Source of the DNA: a virus
Taxonomy: Duplodnaviria; Heunggongvirae; Uroviricota; Caudoviricetes
Length of the DNA stretch: 19,722 bases
Strand: one strand, 5' to 3'
IMG/VR virus record: IMGVR_UViG_2537562019_000014
The position numbers and the translations under genes were made by a program. Positions within the stretch are counted from its first letter, which is position 1; every line of letters begins with the position of its first letter. The notes under the pieces were generated by a model that had not been told where the DNA came from, did no database searches, and saw nothing but the letters and a program-made list of their open reading frames with translations. Shown piece by piece: positions 2,851 through 18,234 of the stretch.

Positions 2851-3147
2851 GGTATGCACTCCGTTTAATTGGTCGTGCTACCACCAGAGTTCTCACGCTC
2901 TTGAATGGTGGTAGCCCAAGCGGGGGTGAGAATACCGGCAAACGAAGAAACCGGCCTGACCGAAGTCAGCCCCGCCTGAGCCACCATAAATCGGATATGC
3001 GCAGGTATATACACACAAAAAAACACGCTGGCGCGTGTTGTGCGCTTCGTTTATCCGGGTTCTCACGCCCGGCTGCGGAATTTGCCGCAGCGGAGTAACT
3101 TTACCGTCAAAACGACGCACACGTCAATAATTTGCAAAGACATTTTA

Positions 3148-4463: not shown

Positions 4464-7400
4464 AGAAAGCGCCCTGCTCTTCGTAGCTGCATGGGCTATT
4501 CCCGGTAATGTATTCACGTAACCGCCGCAGTTCATTGCTGGATAAGTGATCCATGAACTCTGTGAGGTACAGAGATGCAAACGTCATAGCTATGCTGGCT
4601 GATGACCATGATGACATAGTGGCCAGCTCCTCACCGGAAAGCGCACTCATCGCCCAGGACTCAGGTACAACCACTGGCAACACAGCCAAAGCCTCAGAAA
4701 TTACTGAATGAGGGGCGTTTTGAACCTGCTCGTTTGTGGATCGCGTTTTATCATCCATATATATATTGAGATCCAAATCGCGATCCATTTCGATGGCGGT
4801 CTTCTCGGCTTTACGCGTTTTCAGGGTTAGGCCATCTTTCTGACGCTGAGCAAGAATATCCAGCATAAATGCCGCTGATTCAGGCTCAACAAAACGCAAG
4901 GTTGGACGCTTATCGCCGTCTCTGCCGCGACGTTTACCTGTTTTAAGGCCAAGAGAGTCGCAAATGTTTTTAAACAACGCTTCCGGCACTTTAGGCTTCC
5001 CTTTTGGCGTCATAAAACCACCAATGTGCAGAACGTTATTCAACAGGTCACGGCGTTCGGCTGTCATGAGGTTATCTCGAGCAAATTTGAGACGCTCCTG
5101 AGTCGCCTCGCCGGTCATAGTCTCAGGGTTGATACCGCAGTCGATAAAGTACTGCCGGAGAGTTGCTGATTTAAGCGCATAGAAACCGCGCGCCCCGACT
5201 TCAACAGTAGGAGTAGCTTTTACCTTGTGATCGATTATTCCAGGGAATTTAGTTTTAAAGACATCATCAGCCTGCTCGCGAGTCATCGCGGTCACTACAA
5301 AATATTGCCACTGTCCCGCCTGACGGTATGCGTAGGTAAAATTGATGGCTGCTTCTTCCCGGTCGTAACGACGAGCTGTTACCTCATCTAAAAGCATTGT
5401 TTCATAGCGGCGAACTTTGTCTCGAGCACCATCGAAATAGAATTTCAGCGTGCCTTCTTCAACCGGTAGTTTCAGTTCGTTTTCAATATCCCAGCGGACA
5501 AGTTTTGCCTGTTCTTCAAGCGTCAGCGCGCGTTTTTTTAGCAGTTCTTCACGCTCTGATTCTTGTGGAGTTTCTGTATTGAGATGCAGATCCAGTGTCT
5601 GTTCCCACACAATATCCCGCGCTTCTTTACGCAGCTCTTTACCGATATCATTCGCAGCATAATCGGTGGCCAGCGGCGATACCTTATAACCGTCGCTGTG
5701 CATGATGCAGATCATGTTGCTGGCGTAGTCGTTACGCGCAGTCGCTTCAATAGCGGCTGCTTTAATTTTCATCCTGGTAAAGTCGGTATTGGCCACCCCC
5801 ATTGATATACGGTCGCCATCGAAAACGACATCCGTCAGTTCACCGTTCATACCTGCGGTAGCAAGCAATGCCTGGGCGAATGCTCGTTCTATTTTTTGCG
5901 GGTCAGTTTCACGTTTTGCACGAGCTTTATCAAAGCCGATAATAAATTCTTTTGCTGTACGGTCGCGGCGTAGCATTTGCACTGCGTCGCTGGGTACAAC
6001 TTCACCACAGAACATGCCGAAATGACGGTCAAAATGTTTTTGCTCAATCGACACGCCGGATGAAATAGACGGGCTATAAATCAGGCCGTCGTATTTTTTG
6101 ACCATCTTTTTCGGTTGATTGGTAAATGCTTCAACTTCTGGCTCTGGTTTGTTTTTCTGGTTTACACACAGAAATTTCTTACCAGGAAAATGCATTCTCA
6201 GGGTGGCTGTCACATCTTCTGCAAAGGTGGAGCTGTCGGTGGCCAACATGATTTTTTCGCCATCCGATACAGCTTTCACCACCTCGGTCATGATGCGATC
6301 TTTTTCTGTATAAAAAACCCGGATTGGCTCACCTGTTTCGCGGTTGCGAACATCAACAGGTAATTCAATTACGTGGATCTGCAGCCATGCCGGTAAACCT
6401 AGTTCTTCACGGCGTTTCATAGCCAGTTCAGCCAGGTCAACCAGCAGATCATTCGCATCAGCATCCACCATGATTGGGTGTTGTTCTGTTCTGGCCAGCG
6501 CGTCAATTAGCGTATTGAATACAGCCACCGGGTTTTCCATAGCCCGACCGGAAAGAACGGCACGTAGCCCTTGTGTGGCCTCGTCAAAGCCAAAATAGTC
6601 GTGCTGGCGCATCAACGGTTGCCAGCAGTTTTTAACAATCGAGTTTATGCAGATGGTCAGTTTACTGGCGTATGGAGCCATTTCCTGATAGCCAGGATCC
6701 TGATAGTGCAGGATATCGGCTTTTACACCTTTTCCTTCTGTCATCATTTCCCACAGGCCGCCAATAAGGGAGACACGGTGAGCAACAGAGATACCACGTT
6801 CTGAGCTATGCATTAACGGTCGTAACAATCCAGTAGATTTGCCGGAACCCATACCAGCACGGACGATGACTATCCCCTGTAGTGATTGCACGTACTTCAG
6901 GACATCATCGGTCATTACCGAAGTTTCAAAACGCTTATAGGTGATATGTTGAGGGCGTTTATTGGGATCAGTTATGCGTTCGCTGAAAGAGCGCGGAGCC
7001 TGGGCAATACGGCACTTTTTATTCAGGCGACGGGCAATGTGGTCTTTTACCGTAGCGCGATAGATATTTTCCAGTCCCATTTCACGCAGAACGATGCAGA
7101 ACATGTTAAATAAATCTGACGGACTGTTAGGAACCGGACAGGTTAGCATGCCAATATCCACCGCTCTCAGCAGCTCTTTGGCAAAAGTACGACGGTTATC
7201 CCGCTTAATTGTCTTCAGGCGGTTGAGCGTCAGAGATAGCAAATCAGTACCAGTTTTCAGGCGGTTTGCTGTTGCAAATAGTTGACGTGCTGTTTCACGA
7301 AGTCCACGTAGTTTGTGCAGGTCGTTGAAGTCACTGCACTCCATTTGCGGATCGTCTTCAAAAGTTGGATAGACGCAGCGGACATCGTTGAATTTCGATA

Positions 7401-8451
7401 AGATTTCATAGCCAGTCCGCAGGCCGGTATTCCCTTTTCCTTCTGTGGCAGATTTCCGGTCATTATCCAGTGCGCAGGTGATTTTTGCCGCCGGGTACAT
7501 GTTTACCAGTTGTTCCACAACATGAACCATGTTGTTAGCGGATACAGCGACAACCACAGCGTCAAAGCGTTTATCTTTTTTCGTGGCAAGCCAGATGGAT
7601 GCACCAGTAGCAAAACCTTCTGTAACAGCGATGTTTTGCGCCCCTTTCAGCTCACCGATAACAAAGCAGGCACCGACGAAATCGCCGCTGGTTACTGCGC
7701 TGGTCTGGTATTTTCCACCTTGTTTGTCGATTCGCTGCCAACCCACAATACGACCATCGTAACGACCGTCCAGGTGAGCCAGAGGGATAGCCATATACGT
7801 GGTTGGCCCCCTGCTCCATTTTGCGCTGTCGTGACTGGTCACGCGACGCACATCACACGAATTAAAAACGTCACGAATACCTTTTTTAATCGCATATGGC
7901 CATGAGCCGTCTTCTGCAGGAGCATGTTCCCACGCGCTGTGAAATGCCAGCCATCCCAGCAAACGTTCATGGTCAATTTGGTTGTTTTTCAGGTCATTAA
8001 TTCGTTTTTGTTCTTCACGGCGACGACGTGCTTCGGCCTGACGTTCTATTCTTGCCCGTTCTTCTTCCGGTTGTGCGACCACGGTCGCATTATTCCGTTG
8101 TTGCTCACGGCGATATTCAGAAAACAGGAAGGAGAAACCGCTCCATGAGCCAGCATCGCTGCCTTTATGGACGAAGTTAATGAACGGGTAATCAATCCCT
8201 TTGCTGTGTTCCAGCCGGGAGTAAATTTCTACGCGTCCTTTGAGGCTCTTCTCGAGAGCTTCTGGAGATGTTTTATTGTATGAAGAGTAACGCTCAACAC
8301 CCCCGCGAGGGTTGAGTTGGATGTTGTCGGAACAGGCAGGCCAGTTGATACCAGCCATCTGTGCCAGCTCGGTTAGTTCATCCCGTGCTGCTTCAATTAG
8401 CGAGAACGGATCGCTGCCAAAGCGATCCGCATAGAAATCGTTTAATGTCAT
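4456..8451 (-). CDS. repA: Replication protein RepA, multidomain primase-helicase
   Basis: 1331-aa ORF; Walker A motif GMGSGKST; TOPRIM-like primase region; size and position match N15 RepA (about 1324 aa) located between telN and cB. Confidence 0.85.
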   Translation of the reverse strand: MTLNDFYADRFGSDPFSLIEAARDELTELAQMAGINWPACSDNIQLNPRGGVERYSSYNKTSPEALEKSLKGRVEIYSRLEHSKGIDYPFINFVHKGSDAGSWSGFSFLFSEYRREQQRNNATVVAQPEEERARIERQAEARRRREEQKRINDLKNNQIDHERLLGWLAFHSAWEHAPAEDGSWPYAIKKGIRDVFNSCDVRRVTSHDSAKWSRGPTTYMAIPLAHLDGRYDGRIVGWQRIDKQGGKYQTSAVTSGDFVGACFVIGELKGAQNIAVTEGFATGASIWLATKKDKRFDAVVVAVSANNMVHVVEQLVNMYPAAKITCALDNDRKSATEGKGNTGLRTGYEILSKFNDVRCVYPTFEDDPQMECSDFNDLHKLRGLRETARQLFATANRLKTGTDLLSLTLNRLKTIKRDNRRTFAKELLRAVDIGMLTCPVPNSPSDLFNMFCIVLREMGLENIYRATVKDHIARRLNKKCRIAQAPRSFSERITDPNKRPQHITYKRFETSVMTDDVLKYVQSLQGIVIVRAGMGSGKSTGLLRPLMHSSERGISVAHRVSLIGGLWEMMTEGKGVKADILHYQDPGYQEMAPYASKLTICINSIVKNCWQPLMRQHDYFGFDEATQGLRAVLSGRAMENPVAVFNTLIDALARTEQHPIMVDADANDLLVDLAELAMKRREELGLPAWLQIHVIELPVDVRNRETGEPIRVFYTEKDRIMTEVVKAVSDGEKIMLATDSSTFAEDVTATLRMHFPGKKFLCVNQKNKPEPEVEAFTNQPKKMVKKYDGLIYSPSISSGVSIEQKHFDRHFGMFCGEVVPSDAVQMLRRDRTAKEFIIGFDKARAKRETDPQKIERAFAQALLATAGMNGELTDVVFDGDRISMGVANTDFTRMKIKAAAIEATARNDYASNMICIMHSDGYKVSPLATDYAANDIGKELRKEARDIVWEQTLDLHLNTETPQESEREELLKKRALTLEEQAKLVRWDIENELKLPVEEGTLKFYFDGARDKVRRYETMLLDEVTARRYDREEAAINFTYAYRQAGQWQYFVVTAMTREQADDVFKTKFPGIIDHKVKATPTVEVGARGFYALKSATLRQYFIDCGINPETMTGEATQERLKFARDNLMTAERRDLLNNVLHIGGFMTPKGKPKVPEALFKNICDSLGLKTGKRRGRDGDKRPTLRFVEPESAAFMLDILAQRQKDGLTLKTRKAEKTAIEMDRDLDLNIYMDDKTRSTNEQVQNAPHSVISEALAVLPVVVPESWAMSALSGEELATMSSWSSASIAMTFASLYLTEFMDHLSSNELRRLREYITGNSPCSYEEQGAFYG
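4737..4787. other. Candidate replication origin inside the 3' end of repA
   Basis: 9-bp inverted repeat TGGATCGCG / CGCGATCCA flanking a (TA)5 AT-rich core; three GATC sites within 50 bp; N15 ori is known to map within the 3' part of repA. Confidence 0.3.
8072..8089. repeat. SopB-type centromere-like palindrome, copy 1 (inside repA coding sequence)
   Basis: TGTGCGACCACGGTCGCA, 7-bp inverted arms with AC centre; closely resembles the F sopC SopB-binding repeat TGGGACCACGGTCCCA; one of four copies in the window. Confidence 0.55.
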
Positions 8452-9384: not shown

Positions 9385-9606
9385 ATGAAACCAGAAGAAC
9401 TTATTCGCCACTTTGGCAGTGTTGAAAAAGCAGCGGCAGGGGTAGGTGTAACACCCGGAGCTGTTTACCAATGGTTAACCGCTGGAGAGATTCCTTCATT
9501 GCGGCAAAGCGATATTGAAGTTCGTACTGCTTACAAGCTGAAGAGTGACTTTACAACTCGGCGGGTAAAGCAGTCGATTAAGGAGAGTCGTAAGCGTGGA
9601 GCTTGA
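9385..9606 (+). CDS. cro: Cro-like HTH regulator (73 aa from ATG 9385)
   Basis: Small HTH protein (GVTPGAVYQWLTAGEIP) divergent from cB; the ORF track begins at a TTG at 9361, ATG 9385 preferred. Confidence 0.65.
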   Translation: MKPEELIRHFGSVEKAAAGVGVTPGAVYQWLTAGEIPSLRQSDIEVRTAYKLKSDFTTRRVKQSIKESRKRGA

Positions 9607-10306
9607 GTATATACGCAGCTGCGTCTCTACGGCATTGGCTGATGTTCATTATCGCCAGCGTGGCATTCTGGAGGTCCAGCTTGAGCAGATGCGTCTCGGT
9701 AGATCAGGACGGTTTAACAATAAACCAGTCCGGTCAATCAGTGTGGGGGATGATAACTCATACGAAGTGTCCGTTCCCGCTGAGCCGGTTAGATTCCACC
9801 AGGGGAAAACATTTAAACAATCATCAATGTTGCTCACTGATATTGATTTTCAGAGCGCCAGCTGGCGCAGGGCTATTTGTCAGTTGAATAACGAGGAATC
9901 AGCCTGGCTTTATTATTGCTACGGATGCAAGCCTGACTACAACAATGATGTGATTGTTTGTCAGTGGTTATGGCTTGATTTTCTGGTTGCTCATTCGGGG
10001 GGCGGCTTTAAAAAAATGAAGGCCTCCACGAAAAAAGCCATGCGGAAATTGATTTATTACGCGGCACAGCAGGTTAAATCAGAACTTACGTGTGCTGAGG
10101 CAGTTGATGAGAGAGAACAGGACAGGCATCTGAGTTTTCTACTGAATATATCTATTGATAGCTGGAGACAAGATTATAAAGAACGCTGGCTTTTAATTAA
10201 GTCGCGATGTCTGAGCTTAAATCGAACCGCATTATTAAATGCGGCGGAGAAGCGCAGTGAAATCATCAAACGCCATCGGGCAGGAAGTGCCATTCTGCCT
10301 TTGTAA
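9596..10306 (+). CDS. 236-aa protein in the position of the N15 Q late-gene regulator; function not verifiable from sequence
   Basis: GTG start with AAGGAG RBS, overlaps the end of cro; synteny cB-cro-Q as in N15 immB; several Cys (YCYGC). Confidence 0.45.
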   Translation: MELEYIRSCVSTALADVHYRQRGILEVQLEQMRLGRSGRFNNKPVRSISVGDDNSYEVSVPAEPVRFHQGKTFKQSSMLLTDIDFQSASWRRAICQLNNEESAWLYYCYGCKPDYNNDVIVCQWLWLDFLVAHSGGGFKKMKASTKKAMRKLIYYAAQQVKSELTCAEAVDEREQDRHLSFLLNISIDSWRQDYKERWLLIKSRCLSLNRTALLNAAEKRSEIIKRHRAGSAILPL

Positions 10307-10559
10307 ACAAGTTATGTTCAGGAAACCGTCGAAGCCAGAATTAAGGTATTCGGGGGTAAGAAATGAATATGTCATCTGGTGTCCAACTTGCGGTTACAGG
10401 ACACGACCCGATAGTAATAAGCAGTCTGTAATTGCCGATTGGTATTTATCAAATCAGCCAGGTAATAAGCATATAGAAAATCTTTGGATTAAGCGTTATC
10501 TGGAAATTAGAGAGGGTGCGACCACGGTCGCACAAGAAAATGAAAATAACGCCATTTAA
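10257..10559 (+). CDS. Small putative zinc-ribbon protein (Cys pairs FCLC and CPTCG)
   Basis: GTG 10257 with GGAG RBS (alternative starts ATG 10239 or ATG 10316); overlaps the 3' end of the Q-position gene; contains centromere-like palindrome copy 2. Confidence 0.4.
   Translation: MKSSNAIGQEVPFCLCKQVMFRKPSKPELRYSGVRNEYVIWCPTCGYRTRPDSNKQSVIADWYLSNQPGNKHIENLWIKRYLEIREGATTVAQENENNAI
10516..10533. repeat. SopB-type centromere-like palindrome, copy 2
   Basis: GTGCGACCACGGTCGCAC, perfect 8-bp arms, inside the zinc-ribbon ORF. Confidence 0.55.
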
Positions 10560-14575: not shown

Positions 14576-14803
14576 ATGAATATTAATGAAATTCGTGGAA
14601 ATATGACTGAAGCGGCCCTGAGTGTGGAATGTGTTATGCGTGGATACCCACGCATTTCCCTGAAAGAGTTAAGCGAAGCCTGTTTTTTGAGTCAGGCTGC
14701 CGTTGAATTTATCATCGAACAGATGATCTGTTTTGGGATTGCAAAGCGTAGCGGGTCTGGTCGATATTCTTTGACCGATGAATATAAGCAGGCAACTTTC
14801 TAA
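14576..14803 (+). CDS. Small winged-helix-like protein (75 aa)
   Basis: GAGAGG RBS; HTH-like segment ISLKELSEACFLSQAAVEFIIEQMICFGIAKRSG. Confidence 0.5.
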   Translation: MNINEIRGNMTEAALSVECVMRGYPRISLKELSEACFLSQAAVEFIIEQMICFGIAKRSGSGRYSLTDEYKQATF

Positions 14804-14806
14804 AAA

Positions 14807-14828
14807 CTGTGCGACCACGGTCGCACAG
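14807..14828. repeat. SopB-type centromere-like palindrome, copy 3 (extended to 10-bp arms)
   Basis: CTGTGCGACC-AC-GGTCGCACAG immediately after the stop of the preceding gene and upstream of the late-region hairpins. Confidence 0.55.
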
Positions 14829-14845
14829 CACAAAAACGAAAAAGC

Positions 14846-14874
14846 TTGGCAAAATGACGGTTTTTAGTTATTGT
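14846..14874 (+). promoter_or_regulatory. Candidate late promoter
   Basis: TTGGCA, 17-nt spacer, TATTGT; located upstream of a terminator and of the methylase/lysis/terminase genes, analogous to lambda PR'-tR'. Confidence 0.3.
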
Positions 14875-14911
14875 TTTGTTAAGTTGGGTTTTTTGTACCC
14901 AACAGCTAACA

Positions 14912-14935
14912 AGCCGCCTTTATGGCGGTTTTTTT
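14912..14935 (+). terminator. Intrinsic terminator (tR'-like) ahead of the late genes
   Basis: AGCCGCC-TTTAT-GGCGG stem followed by T7. Confidence 0.6.
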
Positions 14936-15070
14936 GTGCCTGAAAAGTGGGCGCAGGACAAGTTGCAGCTTGTCCTGCGGTCAACCCATGCCAGAGCTAT
15001 AGGCTGAACCTAAAGCCCACCCGCGATGCGCATCGCCGGGTTAGCTTACCCAGGCAAAAAAATAATAGCT

Positions 15071-16147
15071 ATGTTCAAAACCACTAATATTCATGGCGCG
15101 CAACTCGTTTGCGCAGATTCTCTGCAATTTATCAAAACCATCCCTGATAACTCGGTCAATTTGATTGCAACAGACCCACCATACTTCGGCGTAAAGGCTA
15201 ACGCATGGGATAACCAGTGGGATAGCGATGCTGACTTTTTGGGGTGGATTGACGAATTTTTGGCAGAATTTTGGCGGATATTGGCCCCTAATGGCAGCCT
15301 GTATATGTTTACCGGCTCTCGCCTTGCGTCAAAAATTGAATTATTAACTCGCGACCGTTTCAATGTTCTGAACCATATCATTTGGGCTAAACCCAGTGGT
15401 ATGTGGCGCGGTTGTCATAAAGAAAGTTTAAGGGCTTATTTTCCTGCTACTGAAAGAATATTATTTGCAGAGCATTACGGCGCGTCAGGTTATGCGAAAG
15501 GTCAGTCAGGTTATGCTTCAAAATGTGCAGATTTAAGAAAAAATATTTTTTCTCCACTAATTGATGCTTTTTCGCTGGCTCGCCGTCAGTTAGATATATC
15601 AGCCGCAGACATTAATTCAGCGACAGGAAAGCAGATGTGTTCACACTGGTTTTCTTATTCGCAGTGGCGGCTTCCATCATTAATTGATTTTAATAAACTA
15701 TGCGAATTATTTCGCAGGAAGGCAGATTCACTCGGTGTCCAGTGTCCATATCCTTTTAATGTTGATTATTCAGAACATGAAAAGCGTTATAGCGATCTGA
15801 AATTACATTATGAGGAAGTAAAGAAGCAGTATGATGATTTGAAGGTGCAGTATGAAAATTTACGCCGTCCATTTCATGTTACTGCTGATGTACCTTATAC
15901 CGATGTATGGGAGTTTCCTCCTGTGCAATATTATCCTGGCAAGCACCCATGTGAAAAACCTGCAGCGATGATGGAACATATTATAAAGAGTAGTTCACGC
16001 CCCGGAGATATCGTTGCCGATTTCTTTATGGGATCAGGCTCAACTATTAAAGCTGCGCTGAAGTTAGGACGTCAGGCAATAGGTATTGAGATTGAGAGCG
16101 AACGTTATCTTCAGACAGTTGATGAAGTGAAAAAGTTATTTGAGTAA
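15071..16147 (+). CDS. DNA methyltransferase (N6-adenine/N4-cytosine class), no cognate restriction enzyme seen
   Basis: DPPY catalytic motif near the N-terminus (LIATDPPYFG) and AdoMet-binding FxGxG (FFMGSGST) near the C-terminus; ATG 15071 preferred over 15026, which lies inside a palindrome. Confidence 0.8.
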   Translation: MFKTTNIHGAQLVCADSLQFIKTIPDNSVNLIATDPPYFGVKANAWDNQWDSDADFLGWIDEFLAEFWRILAPNGSLYMFTGSRLASKIELLTRDRFNVLNHIIWAKPSGMWRGCHKESLRAYFPATERILFAEHYGASGYAKGQSGYASKCADLRKNIFSPLIDAFSLARRQLDISAADINSATGKQMCSHWFSYSQWRLPSLIDFNKLCELFRRKADSLGVQCPYPFNVDYSEHEKRYSDLKLHYEEVKKQYDDLKVQYENLRRPFHVTADVPYTDVWEFPPVQYYPGKHPCEKPAAMMEHIIKSSSRPGDIVADFFMGSGSTIKAALKLGRQAIGIEIESERYLQTVDEVKKLFE

Positions 16148-16242
16148 CTGGAGAATATATTCCCCTGCCGTTTTTGGTAGGGGTTATTTTTGCCATATAG
16201 TTTCCAAGCCGAAACCTCAGCAACTATTGCGAGGTAAGAGAT

Positions 16243-18216: not shown

Positions 18217-18234
18217 GTGCGACCGTGGTCGCAC
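18217..18234. repeat. SopB-type centromere-like palindrome, copy 4 (centre GT, inverted orientation)
   Basis: GTGCGACC-GT-GGTCGCAC, 20 nt after the stop of the preceding gene. Confidence 0.55.

Follow-up and report, generated by a model that had tools for sequence, protein, structure and literature searches.

The window analysed here is a stretch of 19,722 nt from a virus of the class Caudoviricetes (IMG/VR record IMGVR_UViG_2537562019_000014). We studied its interval 14805-15070, located between a gene for a small winged-helix protein and the gene for a DNA adenine methylase, the first gene of the late region. An initial annotation had listed six features in this interval; sequence inspection along with repeat and promoter/terminator scans found each of them where it had been placed. 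The interval is very probably composed of two adjoining units, a late-gene switch (14807-14946) and a structured leader of the methylase gene (~14947-15070). The elements are, in order:

14807-14828, no strand assigned: SopB/ParB centromere site, ortholog of N15 IR3; arms CTGTGCGACC (14807-14816) and GGTCGCACAG (14819-14828), 100% complementary, 2-nt spacer
14809-14826, no strand assigned: centromere core GTGCGACCACGGTCGCAC, same as the N15 IR1/IR4 core
14846-14874, plus strand: late promoter, ortholog of p52; -35 TTGGCA (14846-14851), 17-nt spacer, -10 TATTGT (14869-14874), predicted start at ~A14881
14880-14888, plus strand: TAAGTTGGG, candidate sigma-70-dependent pause or Q-engagement element; -10-like hexamer and GGG at -1..+8
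14883-14903, plus strand: H1, 7-bp nascent-RNA hairpin (+3..+23)
14911-14935, plus strand: intrinsic terminator, ortholog of t52; extended CCGCC/GGCGG stem of 8 pairs and T7 tract, +31..+55
14936-14946, plus strand: GTGCCTGAAAA, right after the T tract
14947-15050, plus strand: core of the methylase leader, helices P1-P4 and tail, with covariation
14947-14952 with 15015-15020, plus strand: leader helix P1, partners ~70 nt apart
14953-14962 with 14969-14978, plus strand: leader helix P2
14979-14986 with 15002-15010, plus strand: leader helix P3
15021-15027 with 15032-15039, plus strand: leader helix P4
15042-15050, plus strand: conserved leader tail TAGCTTACC, after P4
14937-15056, plus strand: P0, tentative closing helix, UGCCUG (14937-14942) with CAGGCA (15051-15056); N15-like clades only
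15071-16147, plus strand: DNA adenine methylase (PF01555, E = 5e-47), first gene downstream of the terminator; ATG 15071 used as its start

Over 901 bases around the region the window is 99.4% identical to Escherichia phages YDC107_1 and PhiR46_1. The annotation of PhiR46_1 includes a telL site, a 1331-aa primase and cI, then methylase, holin, lysozyme, Rz and lambda-like head/tail genes; its ParA/ParB genes adjoin telR, an arm that the window stops short of. On these grounds the window is identified as an N15-type linear (telomere) phage-plasmid. At lower stringency the 311 bases of the region matched N15 with 83.1% identity (query positions 30-305, 276 bp; N15 41124-41400). Shorter parts matched phiKO2, several Klebsiella phages and PY54, and 210 plasmid records matched as well. 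The GenBank entry of N15 (AF064539) carries a -35, a -10 and a rho-independent terminator at homologous positions in the gene 51/gene 52 interval, and in phiKO2 the homologous elements are labelled ‘putative plasmid partitioning site’, ‘putative late promoter’ and terminator.

The late control region of N15 (IR3-p52-t52) has the palindrome, -35, -10, hairpin, terminator, leader and methylase in the same order as the window, with a Q homolog several kilobases upstream, a second centromere site right after Q and four dispersed sites in total. The phage of the window is nevertheless distinct: its Q protein is only 66.5% identical to N15 Q, its -10 hexamer is TATTGT where N15 has TATCTT, and its H1 and P2 helices carry compensated substitutions. 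Pattern scans produced 64 viral and three genomic loci with the terminator-leader junction, as well as further loci with the hairpin-terminator pattern.

The 138 nt that follow the terminator fold with z = -4.66, and none of 200 shuffled sequences folded as well. Helix P2 corresponds to the 11-bp-stem hairpin of the initial annotation (arms within 14952-14979), and P4 holds the 14-bp palindrome GCGATGCGCATCGC found at 15023-15036 within arms 15020-15039. Both hairpin and palindrome are kept in N15, phiKO2 and PY54 with different sequences. The palindrome had been described as lying just before the methylase start. This is correct for ATG 15071, which aligns with the methylase starts of phiKO2, PY54 and the lambdoid phages, but not for the longest ORF (open reading frame), whose ATG at 15026 is inside the palindrome. 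The same two elements had been regarded as extras to an antitermination layout; they do exist, but as helices of a conserved methylase-leader structure they belong outside the antitermination unit. Helix P0 is present both in the minimum-energy fold of the window and in the RNAalifold consensus, with 74-80% of cells pairing.

To measure covariation, 13 phiKO2/PY54-type leaders were aligned with plain MAFFT, and 37 pairs in five helices (P0-P4) were followed. In this alignment 91.6% of cells were paired, against 82.8% in shuffles, and 17 of the 37 pairs had changed on both sides; shuffled alignments gave 6.9 ± 1.7 such pairs (0/500 reached the observed count), and alignments with partners slid gave 3-5. 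Model R2, built from those 13 leaders alone, scored the window at 58 bits (E ~1e-11), N15 at 57, locus L100 at 40 and locus L108 at 33. With the clades recovered by R2 included, the number of pairs changing on both sides rose to 25, among them a change from A-U to G-C at the end pair of P1. In a cross-clade alignment of telomere and lambdoid phages, 86.3% of cells were paired and 28/37 pairs had changed on both sides (10/11 in P2, 6/7 in P4 and 6/8 in P3). The proximal P1, P0′ and P5 helices do pair, but show no excess covariation, and the hairpin GGGU/GCCC shows none either. The leader thus has compensatory changes and a fixed position before one gene family, as a cis-regulatory structured leader should.

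Searches of known RNA families gave no match to this structure. In Rfam, with the whole window as query, nothing in the region reached the gathering score, and with the region as query nothing convincing appeared at E ≤ 10; the lambdoid copies likewise matched none. The best Rfam match overlapping the leader (14936-15073), ctRNA_pGA1, had 22.9 bits against a cut-off of 45 and was rejected. A match to AgrB (29.7 bits, cut-off 40) was set aside as a generic likeness of hairpin plus terminator. Full-text literature searches found no description of the p52 leader. A search of viral contigs with the pattern TGGGCGC..CCCATGCC was discarded as too unspecific, given that none of its 75 new loci matched R2.

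The structure is not confined to telomere phages. Directly upstream of orthologous methylases, R2 matched Hafnia phage yong2 (66 bits), mEp460 (59.5), SfV (59), Morganella phage IME1369_02 (55) and phiNP (53). Lower scores were obtained at the same position in Stx2_EH1846 (47 bits), phiP27 (44), VHML (39), Vibrio phage ST2-1pr (35) and Serratia phage OS31 (30), and a weak match (20 bits) in Aeromonas phage phiARM81ld. Of 5426 complete E. coli genomes, 2636 carry the leader in its mEp460 version, in up to eight copies each; loci with this lambdoid form include L252 (1455-1603) and L264 (1782-1931). In the O157:H7 chromosome examined the leader occupies an unannotated 150-bp gap before a prophage methyltransferase gene that is followed by tRNA genes. 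The methylase of Stx2_EH1846 and phiP27 is followed by tRNAs and then by stx2.

Gene order differs between the two groups of phages. In lambdoid phages with annotated Q the order is Q, promoter-proximal terminator, an ORF of 64-67 aa, leader, methylase and then holin or tRNA genes plus stx2. The palindrome-promoter-terminator unit of telomere phages is located between the gene 51-like ORF and the leader; the lambdoid unit is upstream of both. Judged by this arrangement, the leader travels with the methylase and not with the terminator. The window methylase has 83% amino acid identity to N15 gp52 and 55-58% to lambdoid methylases. The gp51-like ORF of the window can be aligned over its full length with the ORFs of 64-67 aa found before the leader in lambdoid phages (pairwise E = 9e-5), and a gp51-like ORF adjoins the leader in every enterobacterial example examined except Serratia OS31.

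The helices could be something other than parts of a leader RNA. The hairpin at 14952-14979 and the palindrome at 15023-15036 might be duplex-DNA sites for dimeric proteins, such as the gp51-like protein or the methylase. Each has local dyad symmetry, self-complementarity is retained at the centre of P4 (GCGC; GGCC in locus L009), a small winged-helix gene is adjacent to the leader, the asymmetry of wobble pairs shows no selection on one RNA strand, and the upstream palindrome of the same region is itself a protein site whose sequence co-varies with clade. P2, however, changes at ten of its 11 pairs, with up to six pair types per position and complementarity kept, and such variability would be unexpected for a sequence-specific protein site. 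Moreover, P1 and P3 are not local palindromes and yet co-vary (P1 at its end pair, P3 at six of eight pairs), and in the phiKO2 type the dyad of P4 is interrupted by bulges. We consider DNA sites an unlikely explanation.

The structure would belong to the minus strand if it were an antisense RNA, or a fold of single-stranded DNA, lying opposite the leader. The predicted fold of that strand is as good as that of the plus strand (-61.6 kcal/mol, z = -4.61); several A.C mismatches of the plus strand in P2 of N15, phiKO2 and PY54 would then become G.U pairs. The reverse is seen in lambdoid P2, where plus-strand G.U pairs turn into A.C on the minus strand. The leader is not flanked by a conserved promoter or terminator of that strand (the nearest promoter-like site is at 15488), and the neighbouring genes, promoter and terminator are all read from the plus strand. 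A minus-strand origin therefore seems quite improbable.

Still another reading would make the elements beyond the terminator additional termination or pause signals, so that the region would form a compound tR′. They do sit between the late promoter and the first gene, and GCCUGAAA after the T tract is conserved along with the terminator. No T run comes after P2 or P4, though, and a terminator scan of the 14805-15070 gap found only 14911-14931. In lambdoid phages the structure is located ~320 nt past the PR′-proximal terminator, beyond an ORF, and is still at the methylase start. This alternative is highly improbable.

Protein coding of the stretch, either as the N-terminal part of a longer methylase begun at ATG 15026 (start of the longest ORF) or as the small ORF 14846-15007, is annotated in both forms in PhiR46_1 and has a parallel in Klebsiella phages 48ST307 and Kpn74, where the methylase is annotated from the first base of the leader, but it is scarcely credible and was rejected on frame and stop codons: leader lengths differ between clades by non-multiples of three, 15 of the 16 sequences checked have a stop that closes the reading frame within 1-24 codons ahead of the conserved ATG, the substitutions are base-pair compensations and the small ORF would begin in the -35 hexamer. 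As the conserved start is 15071, the methylase start at ATG 15026 in PhiR46_1 and its 53-aa ‘hypothetical protein’ (window 14846-15007, across -35, -10, terminator and leader) look like annotation artefacts.

Several observations weigh against the two-unit interpretation or parts of it. Within the leader, G.U wobble pairs are not in excess over A.C (35 versus 48 overall, 12 versus 11 in P2), and both strands fold equally well; since the wobble pairs favour neither strand, the plus strand was assigned from context. The 5′ strand of P1 also pairs with a nearer CCCAU (97.6% paired), so the fold of the leader may not be unique. P0 has no counterpart in lambdoid versions in the cross-clade alignment, and the local hairpin P5 is not conserved in mEp460, SfV and phiNP. 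The link between leader and gp51-like gene is suggested by synteny. In loci L088, L099 and L122 promoter, terminator and methylase follow in the same order, but the leader is shorter and different and gave no R2 match. On the side of the switch, the excess of H1 covariation over shuffles was not significant in 31 sequences, no Q-binding site could be named in the region, and the promoter match taken by itself is at chance level, with eight promoter-like sites found in 3 kb against 5.8 ± 2.3 expected.

In the group of L088, L099 and L122, TAAGTTGGG, GCCUGAAA and the methylase are retained and the terminator is the same. Locus L099 of this group, the only one of the three with upstream ORFs listed, has no adjacent gp51-like gene; a VapBC pair and TnpB are found there instead of gp50/gp51.

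The switch unit begins with the palindrome at 14807-14828, which had been called centromere-like. Its core is that of the N15 SopB sites IR1/IR4, and its position is that of IR3. Sequences of N15 IR1-4 are available as oligonucleotides used in centromere rebuilding (PMC7205306, Table 4); IR3, GTCTGATATCGTGCGACCATGGTCGCACGGAATAGAAAT, is the N15 sequence that aligned to the window palindrome. The 18-bp core is found in four copies in the window (at 8073, 10516, 14809 and 18217), with 0.00 expected. A SopB-type inverted repeat GTGCGACC-NN-GGTCGCAC is thus found upstream of the late promoter as one of several dispersed copies. The copy at 8073-8090 is located within the primase gene and has one mismatch, the copy at 18217-18234 is among late genes, and the four scattered copies mirror N15 IR1-IR4.

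The palindrome differs by clade: a comparison of loci L007, L016 and L108 with window 14807-14851 gave GTGCGACC in the N15 type, TTGGGACC in PY54-like phages and GTGGGGCC in L108. Within 85 bp upstream of the start, no palindrome was found in L100 or in the L088/L099/L122 group; L009 has one, but farther upstream. The distance between the centres of the palindrome and the -35 is ~31 bp in the N15 type, including the window, and ~20 bp in the PY54 type, a gap of ~11 bp or one helical turn. Specificity has changed three times while the centromere site has stayed ahead of the late promoter, its spacing moving by about one helical turn. This pattern fits a partition protein that acts directly at the promoter from one face of the helix. 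In Klebsiella phage 48ST307 (locus L005, ~1490-1560), two tandem centromere palindromes, not one, precede the late promoter. Ravin, Rech and Lane (2008; J Bacteriol 190:3538) reportedly observed delayed late expression in N15 mutants of IR2 or IR3, with the site needed in cis; in the same work p52 is said to be the late promoter of N15, with a Q analogue acting as antiterminator, and work on N15 is also reported to have located ‘terminator sequences’ in the interval from p52 to the first ORF.

The promoter-like TTGGCA/TATTGT of the initial annotation has nine of 12 consensus matches and is conserved in alignments A1 and A4. Support for the promoter call comes from this conservation and from its annotation in N15 and phiKO2, not from the hexamer match. 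If the start is set 7 nt past the -10, a predicted position, TAAGTT falls at -1..+5 and is followed by GGG, an arrangement resembling a sigma-70-dependent pause element. Among 22 sequences from clades with differing -35/-10 hexamers and palindromes, the start-region columns A13, G15, T17, G18 and G19 are invariant, and T12 and T16 nearly so. By analogy with lambdoid PR′, TAAGTTGGG probably holds sigma-70 and pauses the polymerase.

The 7-bp hairpin H1 has arms 14883-14889/14897-14903, and 88% of its cells are paired in 31 distinct sequences. Its 5′ arm is fixed, while the 3′ arm varies by 26 wobble-preserving cells (mostly transitions) and one G-C/C-G swap. The strong intrinsic terminator predicted after it was also found (stem 14911-14931, eight pairs, then TTTTTTT); its stem is invariant and 99.5% paired in the 31 sequences. 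The 55-nt RNA, taken from the predicted start through the last base of the T tract, forms the H1 and terminator hairpins and no others (-23.3 kcal/mol, z = -4.97, 0/200 shuffles as good). In the GTGCCTGAAAA element, C71, C72 and T73 are invariant in A4, and the element is kept with the terminator even where no leader is downstream.

Covariance model R1, representing the short transcript, has 38 instances scoring 67-91 bits. It also scored 43 bits in Stx2_EH1846, 40 bits in phiP27 and 29.5 bits in mEp460, each time in the region right behind Q. Elements fixed across clades are TTTCTAAGTTGG(G/C), the CCGCC/GGCGG stem with T tract and GCCU(G/U)AAA; the columns of TAAGTTGG and of the terminator are invariant though promoters, palindromes and Q proteins differ by clade. 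The sequence (A/G)UGCCUGAAA after the T tract is common to telomere-phage units and the promoter-proximal terminator of Stx2_EH1846 (locus L255, 1128-1141), where no leader follows; phiP27 has GCGCCCAAAAA after its promoter-proximal terminator. At 6260-6350 of the N15-like contig L042, an IS3-family element in the loop of the late terminator parts the promoter from the leader and methylase; a natural recombinant was considered for this locus and rejected in favour of the insertion.

The other features related to the switch and the leader are:

14576-14803, plus strand: gp51-like small winged-helix ORF of 75 aa; weak HTH_24/PCI Pfam matches, 69%/68% identity to N15/phiKO2 gp51
9596-10306, plus strand: antiterminator Q of the Q82-type family (PF06323, E = 2.7e-84, 282.7 bits against a cut-off of 25), presumed to drive terminator readthrough
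10516-10533, no strand assigned: second centromere site, exact 18-bp core, right after Q at the position of N15 IR2
16162-16190, plus strand: second intrinsic terminator, in the methylase/holin interval; 9-pair stem and T run, annotated likewise in N15, phiKO2 and SfV

A layout similar to lambda PR′-qut-tR′ had been proposed for the region, with the ORF at 9596-10306 as the protein in Q position. The proposal is supported by the homology to the N15 late promoter and by the assignment of this ORF to the Q family. PY54 Q is only 31% identical, and the Q of Gifsy-1, annotated as similar to phage 82 Q, is among the more distant relatives of window Q; no solved structure in the PDB gave a sequence match. 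Window Q does not lie next to the promoter: it ends at 10306 and the -35 begins at 14846, ~4.5 kb and ~10 ORFs away. The regions downstream of Q in 82-like phages, Gifsy-1 and phiES15 have no sequence similarity to p52. The methylase is bracketed by two terminators, the second of which precedes the holin gene; a promoter-like TTGGTA-16-TATAGT overlaps this second terminator (16162-16201).

With lambda and phage 82, whose PR′-qut-tR′ region gives the ‘6S’ RNA, the window shares a sigma-70 promoter that looks constitutive, a -10-like hexamer where the transcript starts, a terminator ~50 nt downstream yielding a short RNA, a Q-family antiterminator and lysis genes after the first gene. It differs in the distance between Q and the promoter, in the plasmid centromere site upstream of the promoter and in the lack of sequence similarity to the 82-like PR′ region. 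A short terminated transcript from a late promoter, predicted for the window, is also known as StxS, an RNA that arises in lysogens by termination at tR′ downstream of an antitermination-controlled late promoter, and that exemplifies how such an RNA can become a regulator (PMC7547250). In Sakai-type phages StxS is a 247-nt precursor processed to 74 nt (PMC7547250), whereas the predicted RNA of the window has 55 nt and is not known to act in trans, bind Hfq or have a target.

The com-mom system of Mu is similar in having a late DNA-modifying enzyme with a structured leader and a small regulatory gene before it. It differs in that the small protein of the window is of winged-helix type and its enzyme is an N6_N4 methylase where Mu has Mom; the window leader showed no hairpin that would sequester the start codon. 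A Com-like ORF was not seen in the window: the space at 15050-15071 is too short for one, and the ORFs of at least 40 aa in the gap were judged non-coding and were not scanned for Com domains. A Com-like zinc-ribbon ORF between leader and methylase does occur in Vibrio phage ST2-1pr, unannotated (locus L261, 1404-1541), and in Aeromonas phage phiARM81ld, annotated (locus L257, 1435-1650). By analogy, a Com-like ORF at the leader recalls Mu com-mom and suggests translational control.

Elsewhere in the window, positions 2904-3104 of the minus strand matched C4 antisense RNA (82 bits), isrK (68 bits) and the c4-a1b1 target (49 bits) in Rfam, all above the gathering score. This is an N15-type anti-immunity locus with a small processed RNA.

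The most probable order of events is as follows. The centromere site lies ~31 bp before the centre of the -35 hexamer in a sigma-70 promoter, from which transcription would start near 14881, within TAAGTTGGG. The transcript would run through H1 and stop at the 14911-14935 terminator, giving an RNA of ~55 nt. In lytic growth the Q82-family antiterminator would modify the polymerase at this promoter, and the modified polymerase would read past the first terminator and past that at 16162-16190 into the methylase, lysis and structural genes. The second unit would serve as the 5′ leader of the DNA adenine methylase, the first late gene. Its transcript most likely folds with P1 enclosing P2 and P3, followed by P4, and with conserved unpaired segments. 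The leader might control translation of the methylase or the fate of its mRNA, possibly via the neighbouring gp51-like protein; such post-transcriptional control is our guess.

The promoter-to-terminator switch is known biology; being the p52 system of N15 in a close relative, it adds little to knowledge by itself. Of interest in it are the parts that remain fixed, TAAGTTGGG, the CCGCC/GGCGG terminator and GCCUGAAA, while promoter hexamers, centromere specificity and Q protein diverge; these invariant parts therefore point to the likely Q-engagement core of the Q82-type system. The methylase leader is a strongly co-varying, uncatalogued and widespread structure, and it explains the ‘extra elements’ of the initial annotation. 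We tentatively propose, as a possibility short of even odds, that the ~135-nt stretch belongs to an undescribed class of cis-regulatory RNA, with a three-way junction P1/P2/P3, P4 and a GAGCCUAUCA-type tail, which may be bound by the gp51-like protein or by a metabolite such as S-adenosylmethionine (SAM) and may gate the first late gene. If true, this RNA class would be common to telomere phage-plasmids and lambdoid prophages, in some of which (Stx2_EH1846 and phiP27) it would lie upstream of stx2 on the path of the late operon.

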